64,000 nucleotides of DNA from Escherichia coli (GCF_041248615.1 NZ_CP158426.1), one strand, 5' to 3'; numbered from the stretch's first letter, positions 10,930 to 50,414 are shown. Notes: generated from the letters alone by a model not told the origin. Numbers and translations are program-made.

Positions 10930-11121
10930 ATGCTTGGTAAGGTATTTTTTGTGGTTTTGTCATGTTCTTTGTTATTAAACCCACTAACTACCTATGCTAG
11001 AAATTATCCCTGTTCAGGGAAAAAGGGAGGTGTTTCTCACTGTACCTCAGATGGCAAATTCGTTTGCAATGATGGAACTATTAGTAAATCCAAAAAAATC
11101 TGTACTAAAAACTCACGATAA
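10930..11121 (+). CDS. Small secreted Cys-containing peptide (possible moron) between cI and int
   Basis: 63 codons; strong RBS GGGAGG 6 nt before ATG; N-terminal signal-peptide-like segment ([23 protein letters not shown]) followed by about 40 residues with four Cys and many Lys. Confidence 0.5.
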
Positions 11122-11309
11122 CTTTTGCTTTTATATCTGCGCCTAAAATAAAAATGAGCCGCAGGTTAACCGCAAAAGTTACATGCTCACATAGCAAAAA
11201 GAATAGCCAACTTAATTATGGCTTCAGTGAGATGTATGGTCGTAGGATTTCATACATTGACACTGGTTATACATACAGTGAAAATGCTCTCTACTGGAGG
11301 GCATTTTTT

Positions 11310-12362
11310 ATGGCAGTACGAAAACTCACCACAGGGAAATGGCTTTGCGAATGTTACCCCGCCGGACGTAATGGGCGTCGTGTGCGTAAACAATTCGCCA
11401 CCAAAGGCGAAGCACTGGCCTTCGAGCGATACACCATGGGGGAAATAGAAGCAAAGCCCTGGCTGGGCGAATCAGTGGATCGTCGGACACTGAAAGATAT
11501 GGTTGAGCTATGGTTCAAATTACATGGCAAATCTCTTACTGCCGGACAGCATGTCTACAACAAGCTGCTGTTGATGGTTGACGCCTTGGGAAATCCCCTT
11601 GCAACTGATCTCACCTCAAAAATGTTTGCTCACTATCGCGATAAACGCCTTACTGGTGAAATCTACTTCAGTGAAAAATGGAAGAAAGGAGCAAGCCCAG
11701 TTACTGTTAACCTGGAGCAAAGCCATCTAAGCAGCGTTTTCAGAGAACTTTCCCGCCTGGGTGAATGGACACTTCCAAACCCATTAGAGAAGATGCGCAA
11801 ATTCACTATCGCAGAAAAGGAAATGGCATGGCTTACACATGAGCAGATTATCGAATTACTGTCTGACTGCAAACGTCAGAACCCAATTCTGGCACTGGTG
11901 GTAAAAATATGTCTAAGTACAGGTGCACGTTGGCGAGAAGCAATCAATCTTGCTCGCTCACAGGTCACCAAGTACCGAATCACCTTTGTGAGAACGAAGG
12001 GTAAGAAAAACAGAAGCATCCCTATCAGTAAAGAGCTTTATGAAGAGATAATGGCGCTCGATGGGTTCAATTTCTTCACAGACTGCTATTTTCAATTTTT
12101 ATCCGTGATGGAAAAAACGTCTATCGTTCTCCCTCGCGGTCAACTGACACACGTTCTGCGCCATACGTTTGCGGCGCACTTCATGATGTCGGGTGGAAAC
12201 ATCTTGGCCTTACAAAAAATTCTCGGACATCACGATATAAAAATGACTATGCGTTATGCGCATCTGGCACCGGATCATTTGGAAACGGCGCTCCGTTTCA
12301 ATCCACTGGCAACGTTACCAAATGGCGACAAAGTGGCGGCAGCGGTTGGCATTACCCCGTAA
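11310..12362 (+). CDS. int: Phage tyrosine integrase
   Basis: Catalytic residues in TGARWREA, HVLRHTFAAH and MRYAHL; GGAGG RBS before ATG at 11310 (track ORF starts upstream at 11154); last prophage gene, about 100 bp from host rcdA. Confidence 0.9.
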   Translation: MAVRKLTTGKWLCECYPAGRNGRRVRKQFATKGEALAFERYTMGEIEAKPWLGESVDRRTLKDMVELWFKLHGKSLTAGQHVYNKLLLMVDALGNPLATDLTSKMFAHYRDKRLTGEIYFSEKWKKGASPVTVNLEQSHLSSVFRELSRLGEWTLPNPLEKMRKFTIAEKEMAWLTHEQIIELLSDCKRQNPILALVVKICLSTGARWREAINLARSQVTKYRITFVRTKGKKNRSIPISKELYEEIMALDGFNFFTDCYFQFLSVMEKTSIVLPRGQLTHVLRHTFAAHFMMSGGNILALQKILGHHDIKMTMRYAHLAPDHLETALRFNPLATLPNGDKVAAAVGITP

Positions 12363-12421
12363 TAACCACCACTGACCACCACATTAAGTTATTGTTTTTC
12401 ATCTAACTTATTGTTTTTATT

Positions 12422-12447
12422 AACCCATTTAGATAAGTGGGTTTTTT
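12422..12447 (+). terminator. Rho-independent terminator after int / att-junction hairpin (AACCCA-N10-TGGGTT + TTTTTT)
   Basis: Stem-loop followed by a six-T run; its 3' part TGGGTTTTTTGTT equals the recalled 3' end of the E. coli RybB sRNA terminator. Confidence 0.5.
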
Positions 12448-12466
12448 GTTATCTAAAATTTATCTA

Positions 12467-13003
12467 CTACCCTGCAACCCTCTCAACCATCCTCAAAATC
12501 TCCTCGCGCGATAGCGGCTTACGGTCGGTGACAAAATGCAGCGTCATCCCCTCAATAAACGCATCAAGCGCGCGGGCGGTTCCGGGTTCAAACCATTGTT
12601 CGAGCGTTTGCTGACTGCGCTGCATCCAGTTTTGCATTACCGTTTTTAATAGCGGTTTTCGGCTAGCCAGCGCGTAGAGCTGATACATCAGCTCCATATT
12701 ATCCGGCGTTGCAACCTGTGAGCTGTAGATCATATCGGTGATAGCCTGGCATGCGCCTTGAGCATCACTAACATCGCTAAAAAATGCCTGATATTGCCGG
12801 GACATGATCTCAGTAAAACTGCTGAACGCCTCCAGCAACAACTCATCAATTCCTGAAAAATAGTAGGTCATCGATCCCAACGGTACCCCGGCAAGGGTAG
12901 CAATTTTGCGGTGCGTAACAGCATGTATTCCATAAAGTTTCACCGCCTCCAGCGTGGCCTGGATAATTTTTTCTCGCCGTTGCGGATCGTTAGCGCGACG
13001 CAT
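12467..13003 (-). CDS. rcdA: TetR-family transcriptional regulator RcdA (YbjK)
   Basis: Trimmed to internal Met gives 178 aa, matching K-12; N-terminal TetR HTH; synteny. Confidence 0.9.
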
Positions 13004-13086
13004 GTCATTTCCTCTCTCTGCAATTGTGTACAAATGTACACAACCTTGCTAATGTTGTCTTCCCTCTTCTTATTTTGACGTGATCT

Positions 13087-14295
13087 ATGACCGTAAATTC
13101 TTCACGTAATGCATTGAAACGCCGAACCTGGGCGCTGTTTATGTTCTTCTTTTTGCCGGGCCTGTTAATGGCGTCCTGGGCAACCCGTACGCCTGCTATC
13201 CGCGATATTCTTTCTGTTTCGATCGCTGAAATGGGCGGAGTCCTCTTTGGTCTGTCGATCGGTTCAATGAGCGGTATTCTCTGCTCGGCGTGGTTAGTGA
13301 AACGCTTTGGCACGCGTAATGTCATCCTGGTCACGATGTCCTGCGCATTGATCGGGATGATGATACTAAGTCTGGCACTCTGGCTGACATCGCCCCTGCT
13401 CTTTGCCGTTGGTCTCGGCGTCTTTGGGGCAAGTTTTGGTTCTGCGGAAGTGGCGATAAACGTTGAAGGTGCCGCCGTTGAGCGAGAAATGAATAAAACG
13501 GTTTTGCCGATGATGCACGGTTTTTATAGCCTGGGCACGCTGGCAGGCGCAGGTGTCGGGATGGCACTTACGGCCTTTGGCGTTCCAGCAACGGTGCACA
13601 TTTTATTGGCGGCGCTGGTAGGCATCGCGCCTATTTATATCGCCATTCAGGCAATCCCTGACGGTACGGGCAAAAATGCTGCCGATGGCACCCAGCATGG
13701 TGAAAAAGGCGTACCTTTTTATCGGGATATCCAGTTGCTGCTGATTGGTGTTGTGGTGCTGGCGATGGCCTTTGCCGAAGGTTCTGCCAACGACTGGTTA
13801 CCCTTATTAATGGTTGACGGTCACGGTTTTAGCCCCACTTCCGGCTCGCTGATTTATGCCGGTTTTACCCTGGGGATGACCGTTGGACGCTTCACTGGCG
13901 GTTGGTTCATCGACCGTTACAGTCGCGTTGCCGTGGTTCGGGCCAGTGCGCTAATGGGGGCGTTGGGTATTGGGCTGATTATTTTTGTCGATAGCGCCTG
14001 GGTCGCTGGGGTGTCTGTTGTACTCTGGGGACTGGGTGCCTCGCTGGGCTTCCCGCTGACCATTTCTGCCGCCAGCGATACCGGCCCCGATGCACCAACC
14101 CGCGTCAGTGTGGTAGCAACGACCGGTTATCTGGCTTTCCTCGTCGGGCCGCCGCTGCTGGGCTATCTCGGCGAACATTATGGATTACGTAGTGCAATGC
14201 TGGTTGTACTGGCGCTGGTTATTCTCGCGGCTATTGTCGCGAAAGCCGTCGCCAAACCCGATACCAAAACGCAGACGGCGATGGAGAATAGTTGA
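13087..14295 (+). CDS. ybjJ: MFS inner-membrane transporter YbjJ
   Basis: 402 aa, polytopic hydrophobic; synteny. Confidence 0.85.
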
Positions 14296-42329: not shown

Positions 42330-43595
42330 ATGGCTTCTACTTTTACCAGCGACACATTGCCTGCCGATCACAAAGCAGCTATCCGTCAGATGAAGCACGC
42401 GCTGCGGGCACAGCTTGGCGACGTCCAGCAGATCTTTAATCAGCTAAGCGATGACATTGCTACGCGAGTGGCTGAAATCAACGCACTCAAAGCACAGGGC
42501 GATGCCGTCTGGCCGGTGCTGTCTTATGCCGATATCAAAGCAGGTCATGTTACTGCAGAGCAGCGCGAACAGATTAAACGTCGCGGTTGTGCGGTGATAA
42601 AAGGCCATTTCCCCCGCGAACAAGCGCTAGGCTGGGATCAGTCGATGCTGGACTATCTGGACCGCAACCGCTTTGACGAGGTCTACAAAGGCCCCGGCGA
42701 TAATTTCTTCGGGACGCTCAGCGCTTCACGTCCCGAGATTTACCCCATCTACTGGTCGCAGGCGCAAATGCAGGCCCGCCAGAGTGAAGAAATGGCGAAT
42801 GTGCAGTCGTTTCTCAATCGTCTGTGGACATTTGAAAGTGATGGAAAGCAATGGTTTAACCCGGATGTGAGCGTCATCTACCCTGACCGTATCCGCCGCC
42901 GTCCGCCCGGAACGACCTCCAAAGGTCTTGGAGCGCATACCGACTCCGGGGCGCTGGAACGCTGGCTGCTTCCAGCGTATCAGCACGTTTTCGCCAACGT
43001 CTTTAATGGCAATCTGGCGAAATACGATCCCTGGCATGCGGCACATCGTACGGAAGTTGAAGAGTACACGGTGGACAACACCACCAAATGTTCCGTGTTT
43101 CGGACATTCCAGGGCTGGACAGCGCTCTCTGATATGCTGCCTGGTCAGGGGCTGCTGCACGTCGTGCCCATTCCTGAAGCCATGGCGTACGTACTGTTAC
43201 GTCCGCTGCTTGATGATGTGCCGGAGGATGAACTGTGCGGCGTAGCGCCCGGAAGAGTATTGCCGGTATCAGAGCAATGGCATCCACTGTTAATTGAGGC
43301 GTTAACCAGCATTCCAAAACTCGAAGCCGGAGACTCCGTCTGGTGGCACTGCGACGTCATCCATTCCGTTGCCCCCGTTGAAAATCAACAGGGCTGGGGC
43401 AACGTGATGTACATTCCTGCGGCACCGATGTGCGAGAAAAATCTTGCCTACGCGCACAAGGTGAAGGCCGCACTGGAAAAAGGCGCATCGCCGGGCGACT
43501 TCCCGCGCGAGGACTATGAAACAAACTGGGAAGGACGCTTTACGCTTGCCGACCTCAACATTCACGGTAAGCGAGCGTTGGGAATCGACAGCTGA
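42330..43595 (+). CDS. ybiU: DUF1479-family protein YbiU
   Basis: 421 aa from MASTFTSD; synteny. Confidence 0.8.
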   Translation: MASTFTSDTLPADHKAAIRQMKHALRAQLGDVQQIFNQLSDDIATRVAEINALKAQGDAVWPVLSYADIKAGHVTAEQREQIKRRGCAVIKGHFPREQALGWDQSMLDYLDRNRFDEVYKGPGDNFFGTLSASRPEIYPIYWSQAQMQARQSEEMANVQSFLNRLWTFESDGKQWFNPDVSVIYPDRIRRRPPGTTSKGLGAHTDSGALERWLLPAYQHVFANVFNGNLAKYDPWHAAHRTEVEEYTVDNTTKCSVFRTFQGWTALSDMLPGQGLLHVVPIPEAMAYVLLRPLLDDVPEDELCGVAPGRVLPVSEQWHPLLIEALTSIPKLEAGDSVWWHCDVIHSVAPVENQQGWGNVMYIPAAPMCEKNLAYAHKVKAALEKGASPGDFPREDYETNWEGRFTLADLNIHGKRALGIDS

Positions 43596-44665
43596 GTGTC
43601 GTACAGCCCTTCCCGTTCCACGGCGGTGTTCCCTTTTCCTGGGCGAACCCGCCGCACTGACTCCCGCATCGCCAATCGTCCGTGCAGCAGCAGCGAGCCC
43701 ACCGGAGCATCCGGGCGAATCAGCCGCTGTTGCAACATTTGCACCGCTTCATTGCCTAGCTCATCGCGTGGCACATGCACAGCCGTCAGGGGAACATCCT
43801 CGATTGCCGCAAGGTTAAAGCCGTCGATACTCATCACCGAGACATCCTGTGGTACGCGCAGACCACGACGATGTAGCGCATTTACCGTTCCCGCCGCCAT
43901 AAAATCCCCGCCGACCAGAAACGCCGTCGGCAACGTCTTGCCATTGGCGGCATCCAGCCACGCTCCGACCTTTTCTTCCGCTTCTTTAGCGCTAAAACTG
44001 CTGATATTCAGCAAATGACGGTCATGGTGAAAGGCCAGATTATGCTGACGCCATGATTCTTTAATCCCTGCAAACCGCTGCTCCATAGTGTAGCGGCGCA
44101 GGCACATCACATTCATCACCTCCCGGTGACCCATTTCAAACAGATAGCGGGCGGCGAACGCGCCAATTAACCGATGGTCCGGCGCAATCGCCGGGAGGCG
44201 CATTCGTTCATCACGGCAGTTGATCAGCACACAAGGCTTAGCGAGATCGGCGGCCAGATCATGGATGTGCGGATCGTCAATCCCCAGCAGGATCGCCGCC
44301 TGCGTATCTGCTTCATTCATCCGCGAGAGAAATAGCGCGGGATCGCTGTCAAACTCCTCCAGCGCGCAGTAACGCAGCCGCACTTCATGCGGCGATAACG
44401 CTTTGCTGATGCTCTGGATCACACGGTAATAAAAGATATCAGATCGTTGGTCAAAAGCGCGTTGCGGCGCGAAAATAATCAGGTTGTTCAGCAACATACG
44501 ACCTGCTGCCATGCCATCCATCACGCCCAACTCACGCGCGCAGGCCAGCACCTGTTCGCGAGCGCGTGCACTGGTATTCGCTTTGCCAGCCAGCACCCGC
44601 GAAACCGTACTCGGCGATAGCCCGGTACGTGCGGCGATATCGGCGATTTTCAGCTTCTTGTCCAT
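43562..44665 (-). CDS. LacI-family transcriptional regulator (accessory island)
   Basis: N-terminal HTH (KIADIAARTGLSPSTVSRVLAG) and periplasmic-binding-like effector domain; start at MDKKLKIADIA; 3' end overlaps ybiU by 34 bp. Confidence 0.75.
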   Translation of the reverse strand: MDKKLKIADIAARTGLSPSTVSRVLAGKANTSARAREQVLACARELGVMDGMAAGRMLLNNLIIFAPQRAFDQRSDIFYYRVIQSISKALSPHEVRLRYCALEEFDSDPALFLSRMNEADTQAAILLGIDDPHIHDLAADLAKPCVLINCRDERMRLPAIAPDHRLIGAFAARYLFEMGHREVMNVMCLRRYTMEQRFAGIKESWRQHNLAFHHDRHLLNISSFSAKEAEEKVGAWLDAANGKTLPTAFLVGGDFMAAGTVNALHRRGLRVPQDVSVMSIDGFNLAAIEDVPLTAVHVPRDELGNEAVQMLQQRLIRPDAPVGSLLLHGRLAMRESVRRVRPGKGNTAVEREGLYDTQLSIPNARLP

Positions 44666-44959
44666 TTTGTGATCTGCCTCTAATTCGGAAATGACAGAAT
44701 TTTCATGAGCAAAAAAGCCCATTCTGTCTGGCATTAAATCCATTTCAGTAATGTATATCAGTCACTCATGGAAAAACGTGCACAAAACCCGCTTTCTTTC
44801 GCTTTTAGGGTCTCTTACTGTGAATTGGTAGAACAACTTCCATACAAAAATAATGGGAAAACGAACAATAAAGACTTTATTTATCAAAAAGTTAAAAGTG
44901 GTGTGACAACTCCATTCTGACGTTGCCGCACAAACCCTATACCATTCTGTGGAGTGCAT

Positions 44960-46261
44960 ATGAGTCAGGGTATCAATAACGATATGACTGCCAGTAAACC
45001 GCGCCATATCGTCAAAAATCTGCGTTGGTGGATACTGGTCCTTTTTTTGCTCGGTGTTACTGTCAACTACATCACGCGTAACTCGCTGGGTATTCTCGCC
45101 CCCGAACTGAAAAGCAACCTGGGGATTACCACCGAACAATATTCCTGGATTGTAGGTGCTTTCCAGCTCGCCTATACCCTATTCCAACCGTTGTGTGGAT
45201 GGCTGATTGACGTCATTGGCCTCAAACTGGGCTTTATGATCTGCGCGGGACTGTGGGCGCTGGCCTGTCTGATGCATGCGGGGGCGGGAAACTGGGTACA
45301 TCTGGCGCTGTTGCGCTTCTTTATGGGCGGTGCGGAAGCCGCGGCACCCCCAGCAAACGCCAAAACCATCGGTGAATGGTTTCCAAAATCAGAACGCCCG
45401 ATCGCCGCAGGCTGGGCAGGCGTCGGTTTTTCCATCGGTGCCATGCTGGCCCCACCGATTATCTATTTTGCCCACGCTTCATTCGGCTGGCAGGGTGCAT
45501 TTATGTTCACTGGCATCCTGGCGATGCTGTGGGTGGTGCTGTGGTGGGCGTTCTATCACAACCCGGATAAGCATCCTAACCTCAGCAAAGCCGAGCTGGA
45601 CTTTATCCGCCAGGATAACGAAGCGCCCCCTGTCAAGTTACCCTTTCTGACCGCACTGAAAACCGTAGGTAAAAATAAACGCTTTTACGGTATCGCTATC
45701 CCGGCCTTTATGGCAGAACCGGCGTGGGCGGTGATGAGTTTCTGGGTTCCGCTATACCTGTCCAAAACCTATGGCATGGACCTGAAGCAGATCGCATTAT
45801 TCGCCTGGTTGCCGTTCCTCGCCGCTGATCTTGGCAGTATTGCCAGCGGCTATCTGACCAAACTTTACACCCGCCTGTTTGGGCTGAGTCGTGTGAACTC
45901 CGTTGTCGCATCATCGGTCAGTGGCGCATTCCTGATGGTTTCGCTGGCGGTGATGGCCTTTACCAATAACCCGTATATCGCCATCGTCCTTATTTCCATC
46001 GGCGGCTTCGGTCACCAGATCATCTCCTGCATGCTGAGCGCACTGGTGGTGGAATCCTTCGACAAAGGTCAGATGGCCACTGTTAACGGCATGCGCGGTT
46101 CTGCCGCGTGGATCGCAAGTTTCCTGTTCTCCCTGATTATCGGGGTTACCGCTGACAAAATCGGCTTTAACCCCCTGTTTATCGCCATGGGCTTCTTTGA
46201 CCTGATTGGTGCTTTCTTCCTGGTCACCTTTATTGCTGAACGTCGCGCAAAACGCGCCTGA
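44960..46261 (+). CDS. MFS transporter of the anion:cation symporter type (ExuT/hexuronate-transporter-like)
   Basis: Twelve hydrophobic segments; blocks resembling the recalled ExuT sequence (FYGIAIPAFMAEPAW, IALFAWLPFLAADLG, TNNPYIAIVLISIGGFGHQ); GGAG RBS before ATG at 44960. Confidence 0.7.
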   Translation: MSQGINNDMTASKPRHIVKNLRWWILVLFLLGVTVNYITRNSLGILAPELKSNLGITTEQYSWIVGAFQLAYTLFQPLCGWLIDVIGLKLGFMICAGLWALACLMHAGAGNWVHLALLRFFMGGAEAAAPPANAKTIGEWFPKSERPIAAGWAGVGFSIGAMLAPPIIYFAHASFGWQGAFMFTGILAMLWVVLWWAFYHNPDKHPNLSKAELDFIRQDNEAPPVKLPFLTALKTVGKNKRFYGIAIPAFMAEPAWAVMSFWVPLYLSKTYGMDLKQIALFAWLPFLAADLGSIASGYLTKLYTRLFGLSRVNSVVASSVSGAFLMVSLAVMAFTNNPYIAIVLISIGGFGHQIISCMLSALVVESFDKGQMATVNGMRGSAAWIASFLFSLIIGVTADKIGFNPLFIAMGFFDLIGAFFLVTFIAERRAKRA

Positions 46262-46275
46262 GAGTGGATGTAAAC

Positions 46276-48639
46276 ATGAAAACGCTGAAAAACTGGACCC
46301 TGCACAAACAGTCTGCCCACCACGTTGAACTGCTGGTCGATGGCCAGCATATCCTGTGCCTGTACGTGCTGGAAGAAAATCTGTTCCGCGTGCTGTTAAA
46401 ACGCAAAGGCGAGCTGGCGCTGGATCGCACCTGGAGTATTGCTCCGGCGCAGGATGTGCCATGGGAAGGGCGCAGCCGCGAAGATCTCAGCGGCTTTAGC
46501 CTGCCCGCGTGGACATTGATCCAGCACGACGACACCGTGGTTATCGCCACCGAGTCACTGCGTGCAACCGTTCACCAGCCGCTGTGGCTGGAGTGGCACT
46601 ATCGTAACAACGAAGGCGAATGGCTGCCGTTGGTGAATGACCGCCCGACCAGCGCTTATCTGCTGAATGCCCACGGCGATGGCGTGGCACACTATCAGAG
46701 CCGTCGTAAAGATGAACGCTTTTATGGCCTCGGAGATAAAGCCGGCGACCTGCAACGCAACGGTAAACGTTACGAGATGCGTAACCTCGACGCGATGGGC
46801 TACAACGCCGTTAGTACTGACCCGCTGTACAAACACATTCCATTCACCATCACCCGCCGCGATGACATTAGCTTCGGCCTGTTTTATGACAACCTCAGCA
46901 GCTGCTGGCTGGATCTGGGCAACGAGATCGACAACTACCACACCGCCTATCGCCGCTGGCAGGCGGAAGCGGGTGATATCGACTACTACCTGTTTACCGG
47001 CGAACGCGTACTTGATATCACCAAATCCTTCGTACGCCTGACCGGAAAAACCCTGTTCGGACCGAAATGGAGCCTGGGCTACAGCGGTTCAACTATGCAC
47101 TACACCGATGCGCCGGACGCACAAAATCAGTTGATGAACTTTATCCGCCTGTGTGAAGAACATGCAATTCCCTGCGATTCGTTCCAGCTCTCTTCCGGTT
47201 ATACCTCAATTAACGGCAAACGCTATGTGTTCAACTGGAACTACGAAAAAGTGCCGCAGCCGAAAGTGATGAGCCAGGCATTTCACAATGCTGGTTTGCA
47301 CCTGGCCGCCAATATCAAGCCGTGCCTGTTGCAGGATCACCCACGCTATAACGAAGTGGCAGAAAGAGGACTGTTCATCCGTGATTCAGAAACAGATGAA
47401 CCAGAACGTTCCAGCTTCTGGGATGACGAAGGTTCTAACCTCGACTTTACTAATCCGCAGACCATCCAGTGGTGGCAGGAAGGCGTGACCACACAGCTTC
47501 TGGAGATGGGTATCGACTCCACCTGGAACGACAACAACGAATTCGAAGTATGGGACGGTGAAGCACGCTGTCACGGCTTTGGTCAGACGATCGCGATCAA
47601 ACATATTCGCCCAGTGATGCCACTGCTGATGATGCGAGCCTCGATGGAAGCCCAGCAGCGTTTCGCTCCGGAAAAACGTCCGTACTTGATCTCCCGCTCC
47701 GGCTGCGCGGGAATGCAGCGCTACGTGCAGACCTGGAGTGGCGATAACCGCACTAGCTGGGACACTCTACGCTACAACACCCGCATGGGTCTGGGGATGA
47801 GCCTCTCCGGGCTGTATAACCTCGGTCACGACGTCGGCGGTTTCTCCGGTGATAAGCCGGACCCGGAACTGTTTGTACGCTGGGTACAAAACGGCGTGAT
47901 GCATCCGCGCTTTACGATTCACTCATGGAACGATGACCATACCGTAAACGAACCGTGGATGTATCCGGGCGTCACTCCGGCGATCCGCAGCGCTATTGAG
48001 TTGCGCTATCGCCTGCTGCCCTACTTTTATACCCTGATGTGGCAGGCATACGCCGATGATGAACCAATGCTACGTCCGACTTTCCTTGACCACGAGCACG
48101 ACGTTCAGACTTTTGAAGAGTGTGATGACTTCCTGCTTGGTCGCGATATTTTGGTTGCCAGCGTCGTAGAGCAAGGCGAGCGCCAGCGCCGTGTATGGCT
48201 GCCAGATAACGAAACTGGCTGGTACGATTTCTACAACGGCGAATGGTTCAGTGGCGGTCAGTGGATCACCCTCGACGCACCGCTGGAGAAACTGCCGCTG
48301 ATGGTGCGTGCCGGGGCTGGTCTACCGCTCAGCAAACGCATCACCTATGTGAGCGCAGAACAAGACGATACCCGCGAACTGAAACTGTTCCCGCTGAAAG
48401 GTGTGGGCACAACGTCCGGCCTGCTGTTTGAAGACGATGGCGAAAGCTGGGGCTACCAAACTGGTAATGCGCTTTGGGTGGAATGGGAAATGGTTTGCGA
48501 TGGGGCGACCATCAACCTGAAAGTCAACGCGCGCGGGGATTATCGACCTGCATGGAGTGCACTGAAAGTGTCATTACCAGTGGAAGAAAAACGCACGCTG
48601 CTGGTCAATGGTGTTGAAGGGAGTGAATGGATGCGTTAA
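46276..48639 (+). CDS. Glycoside hydrolase family 31 enzyme (alpha-glucosidase/alpha-xylosidase-like), substrate unknown
   Basis: About 790 aa with GH31-type nucleophile region (IDSTWNDNNEFEV) and acid/base region (LGHDVGGF); begins 15 nt after the transporter stop, so probably cotranscribed. Confidence 0.7.
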   Translation: MKTLKNWTLHKQSAHHVELLVDGQHILCLYVLEENLFRVLLKRKGELALDRTWSIAPAQDVPWEGRSREDLSGFSLPAWTLIQHDDTVVIATESLRATVHQPLWLEWHYRNNEGEWLPLVNDRPTSAYLLNAHGDGVAHYQSRRKDERFYGLGDKAGDLQRNGKRYEMRNLDAMGYNAVSTDPLYKHIPFTITRRDDISFGLFYDNLSSCWLDLGNEIDNYHTAYRRWQAEAGDIDYYLFTGERVLDITKSFVRLTGKTLFGPKWSLGYSGSTMHYTDAPDAQNQLMNFIRLCEEHAIPCDSFQLSSGYTSINGKRYVFNWNYEKVPQPKVMSQAFHNAGLHLAANIKPCLLQDHPRYNEVAERGLFIRDSETDEPERSSFWDDEGSNLDFTNPQTIQWWQEGVTTQLLEMGIDSTWNDNNEFEVWDGEARCHGFGQTIAIKHIRPVMPLLMMRASMEAQQRFAPEKRPYLISRSGCAGMQRYVQTWSGDNRTSWDTLRYNTRMGLGMSLSGLYNLGHDVGGFSGDKPDPELFVRWVQNGVMHPRFTIHSWNDDHTVNEPWMYPGVTPAIRSAIELRYRLLPYFYTLMWQAYADDEPMLRPTFLDHEHDVQTFEECDDFLLGRDILVASVVEQGERQRRVWLPDNETGWYDFYNGEWFSGGQWITLDAPLEKLPLMVRAGAGLPLSKRITYVSAEQDDTRELKLFPLKGVGTTSGLLFEDDGESWGYQTGNALWVEWEMVCDGATINLKVNARGDYRPAWSALKVSLPVEEKRTLLVNGVEGSEWMR

Positions 48640-48818
48640 ATCATTACCGGGGCCGGGAGGCGACTGCGCCTTACCCGGTCCAGCCATCGAATCCTTTACC
48701 TCAGTATTTCACGCTGCAGGAAGGCAGCAAACCTGTAAACCCCGGGAGCTTAAATAAGTAAGTGACCGGGGTGAACAGGTGAAGCCAATGCATCTGCCGC
48801 ATGAAAGACGGCGGGAAA

Positions 48819-50414
48819 TTAACCGTCGATCCCTTTACTACGCAGGTAATCTTCGTAATTACCGCTAAAGTCGATCACGCGTTCCGGGGTGATTTCCAGA
48901 ATGCGGGTCGCCAGGGAGCTTACGAACTCACGGTCGTGTGAAACAAAGATCAGCGTGCCCTGATACAGTTCCAGCGCCATGTTCAGCGACTCAATAGATT
49001 CCATATCCAGGTGGTTGGTCGGTTCGTCCATGATCAGAATGTTCGGCTTCTGCATCATTAACTTACCAAACAGCATCCGCCCTTTTTCTCCACCGGAAAG
49101 CACTTTCGCTGGCTTTTTGATGTCGTCCTGGCTGAACAGCAAACGACCGAGAATGCTGCGTACCGCCTGCTCATCATCGCCTTCCTGCTTCCACTGACTC
49201 ATCCATTCGAACACGGTAAGATCATTTTCAAACTCATATTCGTGGTCCTGGGCGTAGTAACCAATGCGTGCGTTTTCAGACCATTTTACGGTGCCGCTGT
49301 CCGGTTGCAGATCGCCCACCAGCGTTTTCAGCAGCGTTGATTTACCGACGCCGTTGGTACCCAGTACCGCCAGTTTTTCACCCACTTCCAGCAGCAGGTT
49401 GAGATTTTTAAACAGTGGACCGTTATCAAACCCTTTGGTCAGACCTTCCACTTCCAGCGCGTTACGGAACAGTTTCTTATCCTGCTCAAAACGGATGAAC
49501 GGGTTCTGACGGCTGGAGGCTTTCACCTCTTCCAGTTTGATTTTATCAATCTGGCGCGCGCGCGAAGTTGCCTGGCGAGATTTCGAGGCGTTGGCGCTAA
49601 AGCGGCTAACGAAAGATTGCAGCTCAGCAATCTGCGCCTTCTTCTTGGCGTTATCAGCCAGCAGACGTTCACGCGCCTGGGTCGCCGCCGTCATGTACTC
49701 ATCGTAGTTGCCCGGATAAACGCGCAGCTCGCCGTAATCCAGATCCGCCATGTGGGTACAAACCATGTTAAGGAAGTGACGGTCGTGCGAGATGATGATC
49801 ATGGTGCTGTCACGCTCGTTCAGCACCTGTTCCAGCCAGCGAATGGTGTCGATGTCGAGGTTGTTGGTCGGTTCGTCGAGCAGGAGAATGTCCGGATCAG
49901 CAAACAGCGCCTGCGCCAGCAGCACACGCAGCTTCCAGCCAGGAGCAACTTCACTCATCGGGCCGTAGTGCTGTTCCACTGGAATTCCCACGCCAAGCAA
50001 CAGTTCACCGGCGCGAGCTTCCGCAGAGTAACCGTCCATTTCGCCGTATTTCACTTCCAGATCGGCCACTTTATAGCCGTCTTCTTCACTCATTTCCGGC
50101 AAAGCATAGATGCGGTCACGCTCCTGCTTCACTTCCCACAACTCTTTATGCCCCATGATCACCGTATCCAGCACAGTGAACTCTTCAAAGGCAAACTGAT
50201 CCTGACGCAGCTTACCAATGCGCTCGTTGGGATCGAGGGAAACGTTACCCAACGTCGGCTCTAAGTCGCCGCCGAGGATCTTCATAAAGGTGGATTTACC
50301 ACTACCGTTCGCGCCAATCAGGCCGTAACGGTTGCCGCCGCCAAATTTGACGGAAATGTTTTCAAACAACGGCTTACTGCCGAACTGCATGGTGACGTTA
50401 CTGGAAACTAACAC
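48819..50414 (-). CDS. ybiT: ABC-F family ATPase YbiT
   Basis: Two ABC cassettes (GANGSGKS and GTNGVGKS); about 530 aa; synteny. Confidence 0.9.

Follow-up and report, generated by a model that had tools for sequence, protein, structure and literature searches.

A transporter–GH31 glycosidase unit between ybiU and ybiT of Escherichia coli, predicted to use an alpha-linked glucuronate glycoside

A three-gene unit that K-12 lacks

In the window (the whole 64,000-nucleotide stretch of Escherichia coli DNA that was analysed), ybiU is followed by a gene for a LacI-family regulator, by genes divergent from it for an MFS transporter and a glycoside hydrolase of family GH31, and then by ybiT. An identical sequence is present in NZ_OW967178.1, where RefSeq names the three genes LacI family regulator, MFS transporter and glycoside hydrolase family 31 protein. 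The locus comprises:

42330..43595, + strand: ybiU (DUF1479), left flank; the terminal 34 bp are shared with the 3' end of the regulator gene
43562..44665, - strand: LacI-family repressor, 367 aa (MDKKLKIADIA...), likely ATG at 44665
44960..46261, + strand: MFS transporter of the anion:cation symporter type, 433 aa, an ExuT paralogue
46276..48639, + strand: cytoplasmic GH31 glycosidase, 787 aa, a predicted alpha-glucuronidase
48819..50414, - strand: ybiT (ABC-F ATPase), right flank (NCBIfam PRK15064, 1067 bits)
43583..48825, no strand: segment missing from K-12, as shown by a blastn comparison of the BW25113 locus with the window

The transporter ORF spans 44954-46261 (+) and that of the glycosidase 46264-48639 (+), with likely ATG starts at 44960 and 46276, both as in RefSeq; the glycosidase starts 14 bp past the transporter stop. 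A sequence-only reading of this DNA had described a LacI-type repressor divergent from a transporter-hydrolase operon, and every feature was found where it had been placed. Pfam domains (LacI HTH with Peripla_BP_3, MFS_1, and GH31 domains with DUF5110) bear out the family assignments. The reported 34-bp convergent overlap of the regulator and ybiU 3' ends lies at 43562-43595; in other genera this overlap is 34 bp or 4 bp. Also correct was the statement that ybiU and ybiT are neighbours in K-12, where the unit is missing. In BW25113 ybiU adjoins ybiT directly: homology to the window ends at 43582 and restarts at 48826, and the 5,243 bp between these points stand where K-12 has a 257-bp spacer of REP/BIME elements and a hairpin.

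Distribution and origin of the locus

The unit had been called accessory, and so it is within E. coli: at least 80% of its length is covered in 575 of 5,426 complete genomes (10.6%), one of them labelled ST69, and it is chromosomal in all. These copies form two allele groups about 2% apart, a difference typical of old E. coli polymorphism. Outside the species, the order ybiU-LacI-MFS-GH31-ybiT-ldtB recurs in at least nine other Enterobacteriaceae genera. It is kept in Pseudocitrobacter, Enterobacter, Citrobacter, Silvania, Kosakonia, Siccibacter and Pluralibacter, and also in Kluyvera and Cronobacter, without a full ybiU match in these two. Even the tail-to-tail overlap of the regulator with ybiU is conserved in other genera. 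Nucleotide identity to these genera is 72–84% for the three genes and 74–86% for the flanking core genes, and the divergence comparison found no near-identical donor. At the ybiU-ybiT locus there are no integrase, transposase, tRNA or other mobility genes, no direct or inverted repeats flank the segment, and its G+C matches that of the flanks. Strain HS-02 carries a pseudogenised remnant, about 90% identical, at the same site.

The earlier description of about 5 kb inserted between ybiU and ybiT is thus half right: the additional DNA relative to K-12 is there, and the foreign island is not. Given the synteny, the flank-equal divergence, the lack of mobility features and the HS-02 remnant, we consider it more likely that the locus is ancestral to Enterobacteriaceae and was lost by most E. 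coli lineages, the K-12 state being a deletion, than that it was recently inserted. A mobile genomic island at ybiU-ybiT was rejected on the same features. Horizontal acquisition by some E. coli lineages would explain why K-12 and about 89% of complete genomes lack the unit, and why other Escherichia species are not among the 80 best loci of a species-representative scan; a related trio is, moreover, demonstrably mobile. Against the shared gene order, the ordinary divergence and composition, and the two old allele groups, we regard such an origin of the ybiU-ybiT copy as improbable.

The mobile trio is a second copy, found on an integrase island at selC, for example in E. coli BL21(DE3). Its gene content and gene order are identical to those of the ybiU-ybiT copy, with amino acid identities of 78% (LacI), 89% (MFS) and 85% (GH31), and it shares the active-site signature and the LacI palindrome described below; its ExuR/UxuR-like box is degenerate. 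This copy adjoins tRNA-Sec and a tyrosine integrase within a mosaic island and has the hallmarks of a mobile element. It may correspond to the aec-35 to aec-37 cluster of island AGI-3 in APEC strain BEN2908, which Chouikha et al. reportedly described in 2006 as a 'carbohydrate uptake' cluster.

An ExuT-like transporter

The transporter (Pfam MFS_1) is 43% identical to K-12 ExuT over its full length (E 9e-120), and its closest solved relative is the D-galactonate transporter DgoT. The best NCBIfam model is TIGR00893, at 267 bits under a cut-off of 395. The DgoT TM1 Arg and the proton-coupling DgoT Glu have their equivalents in R40 (within ITRN) and E126, and Thr stands at the DgoT Asp46 position, as it does in the ExuT motif LTRN aligned with it. 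These features place the protein in the anion:cation symporter family (TC 2.A.1.14; ExuT, DgoT), and the earlier view that it is ExuT-like rather than a GPH-family carrier holds. An ExuT orthologue was considered and rejected: the protein encoded next to uxuA-uxaC in Erwinia shares 81% identity with this one and only 42% with ExuT, and K-12 exuT itself sits elsewhere, beside uxaCA.

The regulator and predicted control sites

The regulator has the Pfam domains LacI HTH, Peripla_BP_1 and Peripla_BP_3. With a helix-turn-helix, a periplasmic-binding-protein-like effector domain and a conserved palindrome that co-occurs with the gene, it falls within LacI/GalR. Its NCBIfam matches, to RbsR, CytR, PurR and GntR, are all below threshold, and no equivalog was reached. 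The longest ORF spans 43562-44743 (-), and RefSeq places the start at 44722. We prefer the ATG at 44665 as the likely start because the longer ORFs cross the conserved predicted operator; an alignment of upstream regions also gives 44665 as the conserved start codon, and the orthologues are 356–360 aa long. The predicted control sites are:

44691..44706, no strand: predicted operator of the LacI-family repressor, ATGACAGAATTTTCAT, from a window scan with the consensus palindrome ATGAAAAAATTTTCAT
44823..44838, no strand: ExuR/UxuR-like box 1, AATTGGTAGAACAACT, with 3 mismatches to AATTGGTATACCAATT
44896..44911, no strand: ExuR/UxuR-like box 2, AAGTGGTGTGACAACT, resembling the K-12 exuR-upstream site AAGTGGTATAACAAAT

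With up to 3 mismatches, the palindrome ATGAAAAAATTTTCAT was found in 48 of 51 loci that have the regulator gene and in none of 9 that lack it, and the predicted operator coincides with a conserved block in the promoter alignment. In the 64-kb window, box 1 alone matches AATTGGTATACCAATT with up to 3 mismatches, where 0.27 such matches would be expected; this ExuR/UxuR consensus was checked against K-12 upstream regions. Compared with the K-12 sites upstream of exuR, uxuA, uxuR, uxaB and exuT, box 1 fits the consensus equally well or better. It overlaps a promoter-like match, a sigma-70-like -35/-10 pair at 44825-44854 (+), and its block is conserved across genera. Box 2 is weaker, with 5 mismatches to the consensus, and forms a conserved block in Enterobacteriaceae promoters. 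ExuR/UxuR-like boxes also occur in orthologous promoters, for example ATTGGTACACCAAT in Serratia and AATTGGTTAACCAAAT in Erwinia.

A GH31 enzyme with a remodelled active site

The glycosidase, RefSeq WP_001589946.1, has no evident signal peptide when its N-terminus is read from the sequence. Pfam identifies N-terminal, TIM-barrel and C-terminal GH31 domains and DUF5110 (PF01055, E 3e-88; PF13802; PF21365; PF17137), and nothing in the Pfam results indicates homology to GH67, GH115 or GH4. The closest solved relatives are the ER glucosidase II alpha subunit (E 6e-80), then FjDex31A, with MalA also among them (to 1e-62); YicI and YihQ follow in the same comparison at 2e-36 and 1e-31. Identity is 25% to YicI (PRK10658 score 230 against a cut-off of 606) and 28% to YihQ over the catalytic core (PRK10426, 137 against 553). 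The best NCBIfam match is MalA, at 307 against 800, so the enzyme stays below all three NCBIfam GH31 equivalog cut-offs. As had been proposed, it stands apart in specificity class from YicI and from YihQ. A YicI-type alpha-xylosidase was rejected on these values and because the partner is an anion:cation symporter-type MFS, not a GPH-family carrier like YicJ. YihQ binds the sulfonate through Arg301/Trp304/Tyr508; the Trp304 position is Phe319 here, which together with the low score and the lack of yih-type genes in 83 loci (see below) led us to reject a YihQ-type sulfoquinovosidase.

The residues on which the functional prediction turns are encoded as follows:

47530..47532, + strand: codon of Asp419, predicted catalytic nucleophile (WNDNNE), aligned with the Asp of WNDMNE in glucosidase II
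47743..47745, + strand: codon of Asp490, predicted general acid/base (WSGDN), aligned with the Asp of WTGDN in glucosidase II
47317..47319, + strand: codon of Lys348 (N-I-K-P), which replaces the 'DP' Asp of glucosidase II
47191..47199, + strand: codons of Ser306-Ser307-Gly308, which replace the GH31 Asp-Ile-Asp/Glu motif

Asp419, Asp490 and Lys348 are invariant in the clade. The enzyme shares with classical GH31 alpha-glucosidases the four-domain architecture, nucleophile, acid/base and O2/O3-side residues, and it retains the other canonical -1 subsite residues (W382, W417, R474, W487, F523, H549). In contrast, the O4/O6 side has been rebuilt in the whole subfamily: the classical DI(D/E), Ile, 'DP' Asp and Met have become S306-S307-G308, N346, K348 and N420. 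By alignment, the Ser-Ser-Gly position corresponds to Asp443 in CtGII and Asp306 in YicI, and Lys348 is matched to CtGII Asp482 by spacing. In CtGII, Asp443 is among the residues that recognise the -1 glucose, and Asp482 contacts its 6-OH (PMC9061262). With the O4/O6-contacting Asp residues replaced, a classical alpha-glucosidase of MalA or glucosidase II type was rejected. This active-site argument is one of sequence alignment to structures about 30% identical. No extra cationic pocket was found among the residues specific to the glucuronate-linked orthologue group, and the subfamily signature also occurs in members with uninformative neighbourhoods (P0121, P0124) or with a CUT1 ABC transporter (P0131). 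Asn346 occupies the position of Asn459 in GH31 glucan lyases, where it replaces Ile (PMC12441222).

Gene neighbourhoods across bacteria

We compared 83 GH31 loci from Enterobacterales, Pseudomonas, Aeromonas, Vibrio, Pasteurellaceae, Marinomonas, Halomonas and Alphaproteobacteria. In 79 of the 83 the gene lies right after transporter genes and seems to share their operon: an ExuT-like MFS is immediately upstream in 58 and TRAP dctQM in 21. MFS and TRAP transporters are unrelated to each other, and both types are associated with carboxylates. The best solved relatives of the TRAP binding protein are 4N8Y, 4N15, 4OVR, 4X8R, 4MIJ and 4MHF (E 1e-71 to 1e-65), which we take to be glucuronate/galacturonate binders.

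All 27 loci that lack the LacI gene and have enough flanking sequence place the GH31 gene among uxaC, uxuA, uxuB, kdgK and a gene for a UxuR-like regulator, and this linkage persists in GH31 relatives only 43–47% identical. UxaA and UxaB are essentially missing (one weak UxaA-like match, 35% identity), which points to glucuronate rather than galacturonate. In the loci of one such relative (P0126) the GH31 gene is nested between dctM and dctP, in a manD-kdgK-eda-dctQ-dctM-GH31-dctP cluster with uxuB-uxaC; the gene of another (P0128) lies near uxaC, where a PIG-L-type deacetylase and another glycosidase are encoded as well. A GH2 enzyme similar to beta-glucuronidase is also encoded in 10 alphaproteobacterial clusters. 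Erwinia-type loci have no transporter next to uxuA-uxaC other than the MFS. No uronate gene adjoins the unit in the LacI-type loci, E. coli included, and there the link to glucuronate rests on orthology and the predicted operator boxes. Sulfoglycolysis genes of the yih type are linked in 0 of the 83 loci.

The sequence-only reading had expected an anionic alpha-glycoside as substrate. Comparative genomics backs this strongly, through the transporters and the uxaC-uxuA-uxuB-kdgK-uxuR neighbours. The two examples it had offered, uronic-acid and sulfonated-sugar glycosides, part here: the uronic acid is sharpened to D-glucuronate, and the sulfonated sugar finds no sulfoglycolysis genes to support it. 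Overall, its interpretation was partly supported.

A proposed pathway for alpha-glucuronides

Taken together, the three genes probably make up a stand-alone catabolic module whose substrate is a small alpha-linked glycoside containing D-glucuronic acid, and we favour an alpha-glucuronidase role for the GH31 enzyme. The MFS would take up the anionic glycoside uncleaved, as a proton symporter like DgoT and ExuT. In the cytoplasm the GH31 enzyme would hydrolyse it with retention, Asp419 acting as nucleophile and Asp490 as acid/base, and the free D-glucuronate released would be consumed by the core-genome UxaC-UxuB-UxuA-KdgK-Eda route. Candidate substrates are plant-derived: 4-O-methyl-alpha-glucuronosyl-xylose (aldobiouronate), alpha-glucuronosyl-inositol and alpha-glucuronosyl-glycerol. 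The divergent LacI-family protein would repress locally at the palindrome ATGACAGAATTTTCAT, and the ExuR/UxuR-type boxes overlapping the operon promoter would tie the operon to the hexuronate regulon. We infer the substrate identity, the direction of transport, the repressor-operator pairing and the ExuR/UxuR binding. Placing glucuronate in the -1 subsite is the economical view, since the whole subfamily shares both the link to glucuronate and the altered subsite, and the transporters and regulators vary.

In a different arrangement, glucuronate would be the leaving group, and the sugar removed by the GH31 enzyme would be neutral and alpha-linked (glucose, xylose or GlcNAc); it would come from a di- or oligosaccharide that contains glucuronate and whose uronate end is recognised by the transporter. 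Examples would be alpha-Glc-(1-4)-GlcA of acidic exopolysaccharides and alpha-GlcNAc-(1-4)-GlcA of heparosan-like chains. This would explain the neighbourhood data too, and GH31 includes many neutral-sugar specificities. The GH2 enzymes of the 10 alphaproteobacterial clusters fit an oligosaccharide with glucuronate as the aglycone of the GH31 step just as well, the alpha cap being removed before the beta-glucuronidase acts, and the deacetylase and second glycosidase of P0128 also suit it. However, the residues that bind O4 and O6 of a neutral hexose are gone from the -1 subsite, with Lys in place of the Asp that faces C6, and it is this subsite that is conserved together with the glucuronate link, whereas the +1-side contexts vary. 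The modules of E. coli, Serratia and Pseudomonas also contain no partner glycosidase. We therefore consider glucuronate as the leaving group unlikely, if still worth weighing.

The transporter leaves room for another doubt. Both the MFS and the TRAP system are paralogous to carriers of free hexuronate and might import the monomer, which counts against glycoside import. The MFS could then be a second ExuT, with the GH31 enzyme loosely connected to it and trimming endogenous or occasional alpha-glycosides outside any dedicated glycoside pathway. Its identity to ExuT, the presumed ligands of the solved relatives of the TRAP binding protein and its place as sole transporter in Erwinia-type loci would all agree. 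Yet a glycosidase in the cytoplasm depends on import of its substrate, the GH31 gene comes straight after two types of transporter across several phyla-level groups, and in P0126 it is embedded within the TRAP genes; exuT is already present in K-12, and the module has a LacI-type sensor of its own, distinct from ExuR/UxuR. A mere second ExuT is thus very unlikely.

An ordinary operon for neutral alpha-glucosides (of the maltose, nigerose, kojibiose or isomaltose type), with its carrier family owed to chance of descent, would accord with the name 'alpha-glucosidase' that these proteins bear in sources, with alpha-glucosidases as the nearest solved structures and with the best NCBIfam match. We give it little credence, given how far the MalA score falls below its cut-off, the loss of the canonical glucose-binding Asp, the consistent setting in glucuronate catabolism with carboxylate transporters, and the ExuR/UxuR-like boxes in the promoter. 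That the enzyme is a lyase instead of a hydrolase, as Asn346 in the glucan-lyase position might suggest, is scarcely credible, since the enzyme retains the acid/base Asp490, its conserved partner UxaC uses free glucuronate, the product of hydrolysis, and no anhydro-sugar reductase is linked in the loci examined.

If glucuronate is indeed bound in the -1 subsite, the enzyme would act like an alpha-glucuronidase, a role predicted from gene neighbourhoods and active-site changes, while standing outside GH67, GH115 and GH4. Alpha-glucuronidase activity is not known from family GH31. It is quite conceivable, though we put it tentatively, that the subfamily represents the first GH31 alpha-glucuronidases, retaining and distinct from GH4/GH67/GH115, within a widespread 'alpha-glucuronide' pathway that has an ExuT-like or TRAP importer.

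Comparison with known systems

Three known systems resemble the proposed pathway in part. The E. coli uidR-uidABC (gus) operon likewise pairs an importer of intact glucuronides with a cytoplasmic glycosidase that feeds UxaC-UxuB-UxuA. It is under dual control by a local repressor and UxuR; for the unit, dual control is predicted. The gus system differs in taking beta- rather than alpha-glucuronides, in its GH2 rather than GH31 enzyme, in the GPH-family GusB in place of an anion:cation symporter-type MFS, and in the TetR-family UidR in place of a LacI-family repressor; the unit also lacks a porin gene.

A second parallel is the glucuronic-acid (aldouronate) utilisation cluster of Geobacillus stearothermophilus T-6 with the GH67 enzyme AguA, reportedly described by Shulami et al. 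in 1999. There an intracellular alpha-glucuronidase and an importer of glucuronosyl-oligosaccharides occur with uxaC, uxuA, uxuB, kdgK, kdgA and uxuR, an arrangement also seen for GH31 in Vibrio, Marinomonas, Pasteurellaceae and Alphaproteobacteria. AguA is an inverting GH67 enzyme, whereas GH31 is a retaining family, the T-6 importer is of the ABC type and not MFS or TRAP, and no xylosidase or xylanase genes are linked to the GH31 loci.

The third is YihQ of the yih cluster, a GH31 enzyme for a C6-anionic glucose analogue that is encoded beside an importer and downstream catabolic genes, and a precedent for reshaping the GH31 C6 pocket. Unlike the enzyme described here, YihQ keeps the canonical Asp and has Trp304 where this one has Phe; the carrier family differs as well, and the sulfoglycolysis genes have no counterpart beside the unit's GH31 gene.

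Implications

If the proposed pathway is correct, it would add a new specificity to the heavily studied family GH31 and would be a second case, after the sulfoquinovosidases, of a GH31 C6 pocket rebuilt to take an anionic sugar. The pathway would be widespread in plant-, gut- and sea-associated Proteobacteria, and the methylglucuronoxylose pathway of Enterobacter asburiae JDR-1, which is genetically undefined, could be part of it. Candidate genes would also be available for enterobacterial use of the acid-resistant glucuronosyl-xylose fragments left by hemicellulose hydrolysis, a question reportedly open since 2009 that matters for biomass conversion. For E. coli, it would mean a nutrient available to about 15% of strains, BL21(DE3) included, that K-12 cannot use: a strain-variable nutritional trait that could affect the use of gut or plant niches. 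The evolutionary reading changes as well: at this old locus of the enterobacteria, the arrangement in K-12 is probably derived, by deletion.

The ybiU-ybiT locus in the window and among E. coli genomes

The gene order in the window is ybiW, ybiV, ybiU, a LacI-family regulator, an MFS transporter, a GH31 glycosidase, ybiT, ldtB and ybiR. The three genes between ybiU and ybiT (the trio), taken from ORF calls and Pfam family assignments, and their right flank are as follows:

43562-44743, minus strand: LacI-family regulator, longest ORF
44954-46261, plus strand: MFS transporter ORF
46264-48639, plus strand: GH31 glycosidase ORF
48819-50414, minus strand: ybiT, the right flank of the trio

The sequence-only reading had described these genes between ybiU and ybiT, and Pfam supports all three families; the regulator and the 3' end of ybiU converge and share 34 bp, as also claimed there. 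In K-12 strain BW25113, ybiU adjoins ybiT with no trio between them, as that reading had stated for K-12. Alignment to K-12 places the breakpoints at 43582 and 48826, so that 5,243 bp in the window occupy the place of a 257-bp K-12 spacer (1084-1340 of the BW25113 locus, L003), which is made up of a GC-rich hairpin and palindromic units of REP/BIME type.

E. coli isolate 362 (NZ_OW967178.1) carries a sequence 100% identical to the window locus, and its RefSeq annotation gives the trio genes only generic names. At ≥80% coverage the trio is present in 575 of 5,426 complete E. coli genomes, and in all of them it is chromosomal and single-copy at the ybiU-ybiT site. Two allele groups can be distinguished by their identity, one at 99.3–100% (487 genomes) and the other at ~97.9% (89 genomes). 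A third state of the locus, in which ybiU is also gone and ybiV adjoins ybiT, is found in E. coli Ecol_276 (L004; NZ_CP018953.1, 7982-10589); when the genome ranking was sampled at 30 even intervals, 7 rows showed this state. Several trio-less K-12-type loci (rows H10, H12 and H19 of the match list) have an IS110-family IS621 annotated inside the matched ybiU-ybiT stretch. E. coli IH5 (row H90; NZ_CP168949.1, 5054186-5055163) has a 978-bp piece across the MFS-GH31 junction, 99.5% identical and annotated beside a phage Bbp16-family capsid gene; the IH5 record has matches in three places.

A second LacI-MFS-GH31 trio lies on a selC-associated island in E. coli BL21(DE3) (L103; NC_012971.2, 6353-11382), directly past tRNA-Sec and a tyrosine integrase. 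Its amino-acid identity to the window trio is 78% for LacI, 89% for MFS and 85% for GH31. Besides BL21(DE3), ~330 complete genomes have the selC copy, ~223 with this version alone and ~110 with both, so that 800 of the 5,426 carry at least one version of the trio. Island AGI-3 of APEC holds a cluster, aec-35 to aec-37, that was reportedly studied genetically (Chouikha 2006), and the selC trio is possibly this cluster.

Origin of the trio

A profile of the GH31 clade was run against one genome per species, and the best 80 loci were annotated by tblastn with the island and K-12 reference proteins. The ybiU-LacI-MFS-GH31-ybiT-ldtB arrangement is shared by Pseudocitrobacter, Enterobacter, Citrobacter werkmanii, Silvania, Kosakonia, Siccibacter and Pluralibacter, and in Kluyvera, Cronobacter, Cedecea and Mangrovibacter the trio adjoins ybiT-ldtB. 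The tail-to-tail contact between the regulator and ybiU is kept in other genera, with an overlap of 34 bp or 4 bp. Nucleotide identity to those genera is 72–84% for the trio genes versus 74–86% for ybiW, ybiV, ybiU, ybiT and ldtB. The G+C content of the trio segment is unremarkable, and a search of the locus borders for an integrase, transposase, tRNA, flanking repeats or mobility genes found none. The ybiU-ybiT site of E. coli HS-02 (L104; NZ_CP172818.1, 2326-5618) holds a decaying copy of the trio locus, ~90% identical in nucleotide sequence to the window: both the regulator and the MFS gene are frameshifted, and GH31 is reduced to a 5' stump. In Cronobacter sakazakii (L002) the trio adjoins moeB, since the fsa-ybiY-ybiW-ybiV-ybiU block is missing, and a 714-aa TPS-domain gene (two-partner-secretion type; 11111-13255) lies between GH31 and ybiT.

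The trio had been framed earlier as an inserted island, a view contradicted by the cross-genus synteny, the flank-like divergence, the lack of mobility features and the decayed copy in HS-02. The simplest reading of these comparisons is that the trio is an ancestral Enterobacteriaceae locus under loss in E. coli, with the K-12 spacer as a scar. E. coli may instead have re-acquired the trio long ago through recombination in the flanks, because the best 80 loci of the species-representative scan included none from another Escherichia species. At their 3' ends, ybiU (final four codons) and ybiT (final one or two codons) differ between the window and K-12 forms, and these C-termini were uninformative about the polarity of deletion or insertion, as both variants are present in other genera.

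The GH31 enzyme and its active site

The island enzyme has a complete GH31 architecture (Pfam). Among solved structures it lies nearest to ER glucosidase II (E 6e-80), FjDex31A and MalA; YicI and YihQ are only distantly related (E 2e-36 and 1e-31, 25% and 28% identity, respectively). It scores below all three NCBIfam GH31 equivalog cut-offs. These scores and identities speak against a close relationship with YicI or YihQ. Judged on sequence features, the enzyme came out as neither a classical alpha-glucosidase nor a YicI or YihQ, and we class it as a GH31 member outside these three types. Homology to known alpha-glucuronidase families was not found, the PDB (2026 copy) returned no close structure, and NCBIfam (June 2026) holds no model specific to it. 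Orthologues 74–88% identical are common in Enterobacterales. An orthologue is also common in Cronobacter, where it is a different gene from gluA/gluB (the diagnostic alpha-glucosidase), as those amplicons of ~1.7 kb are too short for a 2.4-kb gene.

Both catalytic residues are retained, D419 as nucleophile (WNDNNE) and D490 as acid/base (WSGDN), together with W382, W417, R474, W487, F523 and H549. The active site departs from the canonical pattern at four points: D-I-(D/E) has become S306-S307-G308, the following Ile N346, the 'DP' Asp K348, and the Met that follows the nucleophile N420. All or nearly all homologues with at least ~37% identity share these changes. In Chaetomium glucosidase II, Asp443 helps recognise the -1 glucose, and the 6-OH contacts Asp482 and Trp517 through water (PMC9061262). 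The two Asp residues are 39 residues apart in both glucosidases II, and from this spacing we infer S306 as the counterpart of Asp443 and K348 as that of Asp482. Because S306 and K348 hold these positions, the side of the pocket facing O4 and C6 would be rebuilt, with the charge reversed opposite C6. The informative substitutions are subfamily-wide and not confined to the orthologue group linked to glucuronate genes, for which only ~14 specific columns and no clear cationic pocket were found. A lyase reading, raised by Asn346, was judged unlikely.

Gene neighbourhoods and transporters

Neighbourhoods were compared in 83 loci (the best 80, with Cronobacter, Serratia and one Erwinia-labelled genome added) after ORF calling and clustering into families. 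The gene immediately before GH31 encodes an ExuT-like MFS in 58 of the 83 and TRAP dctQ-dctM in 21; the remaining 4 are truncated contigs or ORF-calling failures. Of the 83 loci, 51 encode the LacI regulator, and a uronate gene is adjacent in 0 of these 51. LacI-less loci with an ExuT-like MFS occur in Erwinia, Pantoea, a Klebsiella sp., Izhakiella, Aeromonas and Zophobihabitans, and LacI-less TRAP loci in Vibrio, Marinomonas, three Pasteurellaceae genera, Pseudovibrio, Pannonibacter, Nitratireductor, Roseospira, Cohaesibacter and Martelella. Both kinds place GH31 amid uxaC, uxuA, uxuB (or an SDR-type mannonate oxidoreductase), kdgK and an UxuR-like regulator. UxaA and UxaB are essentially absent from the loci (one weak UxaA-like match, 35% identity), which points to the glucuronate branch and not the galacturonate branch. 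The best solved relatives of the TRAP binding protein are 4N8Y, 4N15, 4OVR, 4X8R, 4MIJ and 4MHF, which we take to be a glucuronate/galacturonate-binding group, the PDB titles being silent on the ligand.

Among more distant GH31 members, one at 45% identity is nested in uxuB-uxaC / manD-kdgK-eda-dctQ-dctM-GH31-dctP, and another is again directly paired with an MFS. Three further members have uninformative neighbourhoods or lie beside a CUT1 ABC system; of these, P0121 and P0124 are on short contigs and uninformative. The cluster of the distant homologue P0128, on metagenome contig L101 (9001-16905), is under an AraC regulator; after GH31 come genes for a GDE_C/GH63-like glycosidase, a PIG-L family deacetylase and a GPH-type MFS, and then uxaC. 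This cluster may serve the use of an N-acetylhexosamine-glucuronate glycoside. In ten alphaproteobacterial loci (L072, 5833-7635; L075, L078, L080, L081, L083, L084, L087, L089 and L090), a GH2 protein lies by TRAP-GH31-uxuB-uxaC, and its best NCBIfam match, beta-glucuronidase, scores 238 bits against a cut-off of 544. The neighbouring GH2 and GH31 genes hint at a substrate with alpha and beta linkages around glucuronate.

The window MFS is 43% identical to K-12 ExuT over its full length. Its closest solved relative is DgoT, whose Arg and Glu equivalents are retained. The Erwinia counterpart is 81% identical to the island MFS and 42% to ExuT; we class the island protein as a paralogue of ExuT, not an orthologue.

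Promoter and predicted operators

Conserved blocks were read from an alignment of 23 Enterobacteriaceae promoter regions. A palindrome, ATGAAAAAATTTTCAT, is conserved just 5' of the conserved start codon of the regulator. The predicted sites in the window are:

44691-44706: predicted LacI-type operator ATGACAGAATTTTCAT, from the window scan and the promoter alignment
44823-44838: ExuR/UxuR-like box AATTGGTAGAACAACT, the sole window match with ≤3 mismatches to the consensus AATTGGTATACCAATT
44896-44911: second, weaker putative ExuR/UxuR-like box

With ≤3 mismatches, the palindrome is found in 48 of the 51 LacI-encoding loci, as far as Yersinia, Dickeya and Pseudomonas syringae, versus 0 of 9 LacI-less loci, and because of this distribution we assign it to the LacI-family repressor. 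Orthologues of the regulator are 356–360 aa long, with the conserved start at ATG 44665 (window protein 367 aa), and the palindrome being its assigned operator argues for this start over the longer annotated ORFs. Both the longest ORF and the RefSeq start run over the predicted operator of the gene itself (44666-44743).

Against the ExuR/UxuR operator consensus used here, one match with ≤3 mismatches was observed in 64 kb versus 0.27 expected. The box at 44823-44838 equals the best-matching K-12 sequences upstream of exuR, uxuA, uxuR, uxaB and exuT in its fit to the consensus, and it overlaps a sigma-70-like -35/-10 pair. Boxes with 2–3 mismatches are also present in Serratia, Pectobacterium, Hafnia, Yersinia, Budvicia and LacI-less Erwinia-type promoters.

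A predicted module for alpha-linked glucuronate glycosides

From these comparisons we conclude that the module would serve the uptake and hydrolysis of an alpha-linked glucuronate glycoside. A small glycoside of this kind would be imported and hydrolysed by GH31 in the cytoplasm, and D-glucuronate would pass to the core Uxa/Uxu pathway; the local LacI-type repressor and, as a further prediction, ExuR/UxuR would control expression. We favour glucuronate as the glycon, and GH31 as a predicted alpha-glucuronidase, because the altered -1 subsite and the link to glucuronate are subfamily-wide, while transporters, regulators and partner enzymes vary, and because a Lys stands in for the C6-facing Asp. 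The main rival is that GH31 removes a neutral alpha-sugar and glucuronate is the aglycone, which the ten alphaproteobacterial clusters with a beta-glucuronidase-like GH2 enzyme would fit. In the literature library that was searched, GH31 and glucuronidase did not occur together in the title or abstract of any paper. An earlier regulon prediction or mutant phenotype is possible, and membership in the hexuronate regulon may already have been predicted (Suvorova 2011).

In the species-representative scan, trio carriers are largely plant-, insect-gut- and rhizosphere-associated taxa, which makes the aldobiouronate of glucuronoxylan, the glucuronosyl-inositol of plant sphingolipids, or glucuronosyl-glycerol from glucuronosyl-diacylglycerol plausible candidate substrates. 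PMC3586718 describes glucuronosyl-diacylglycerol as a plant lipid. The trio was also found in E. asburiae (L012). Enterobacter asburiae JDR-1 is reported to import methylglucuronoxylose and cleave it intracellularly, by genes reportedly unknown (Bi et al. 2009). In its logic the island module would be the alpha-anomer counterpart of uidABC.
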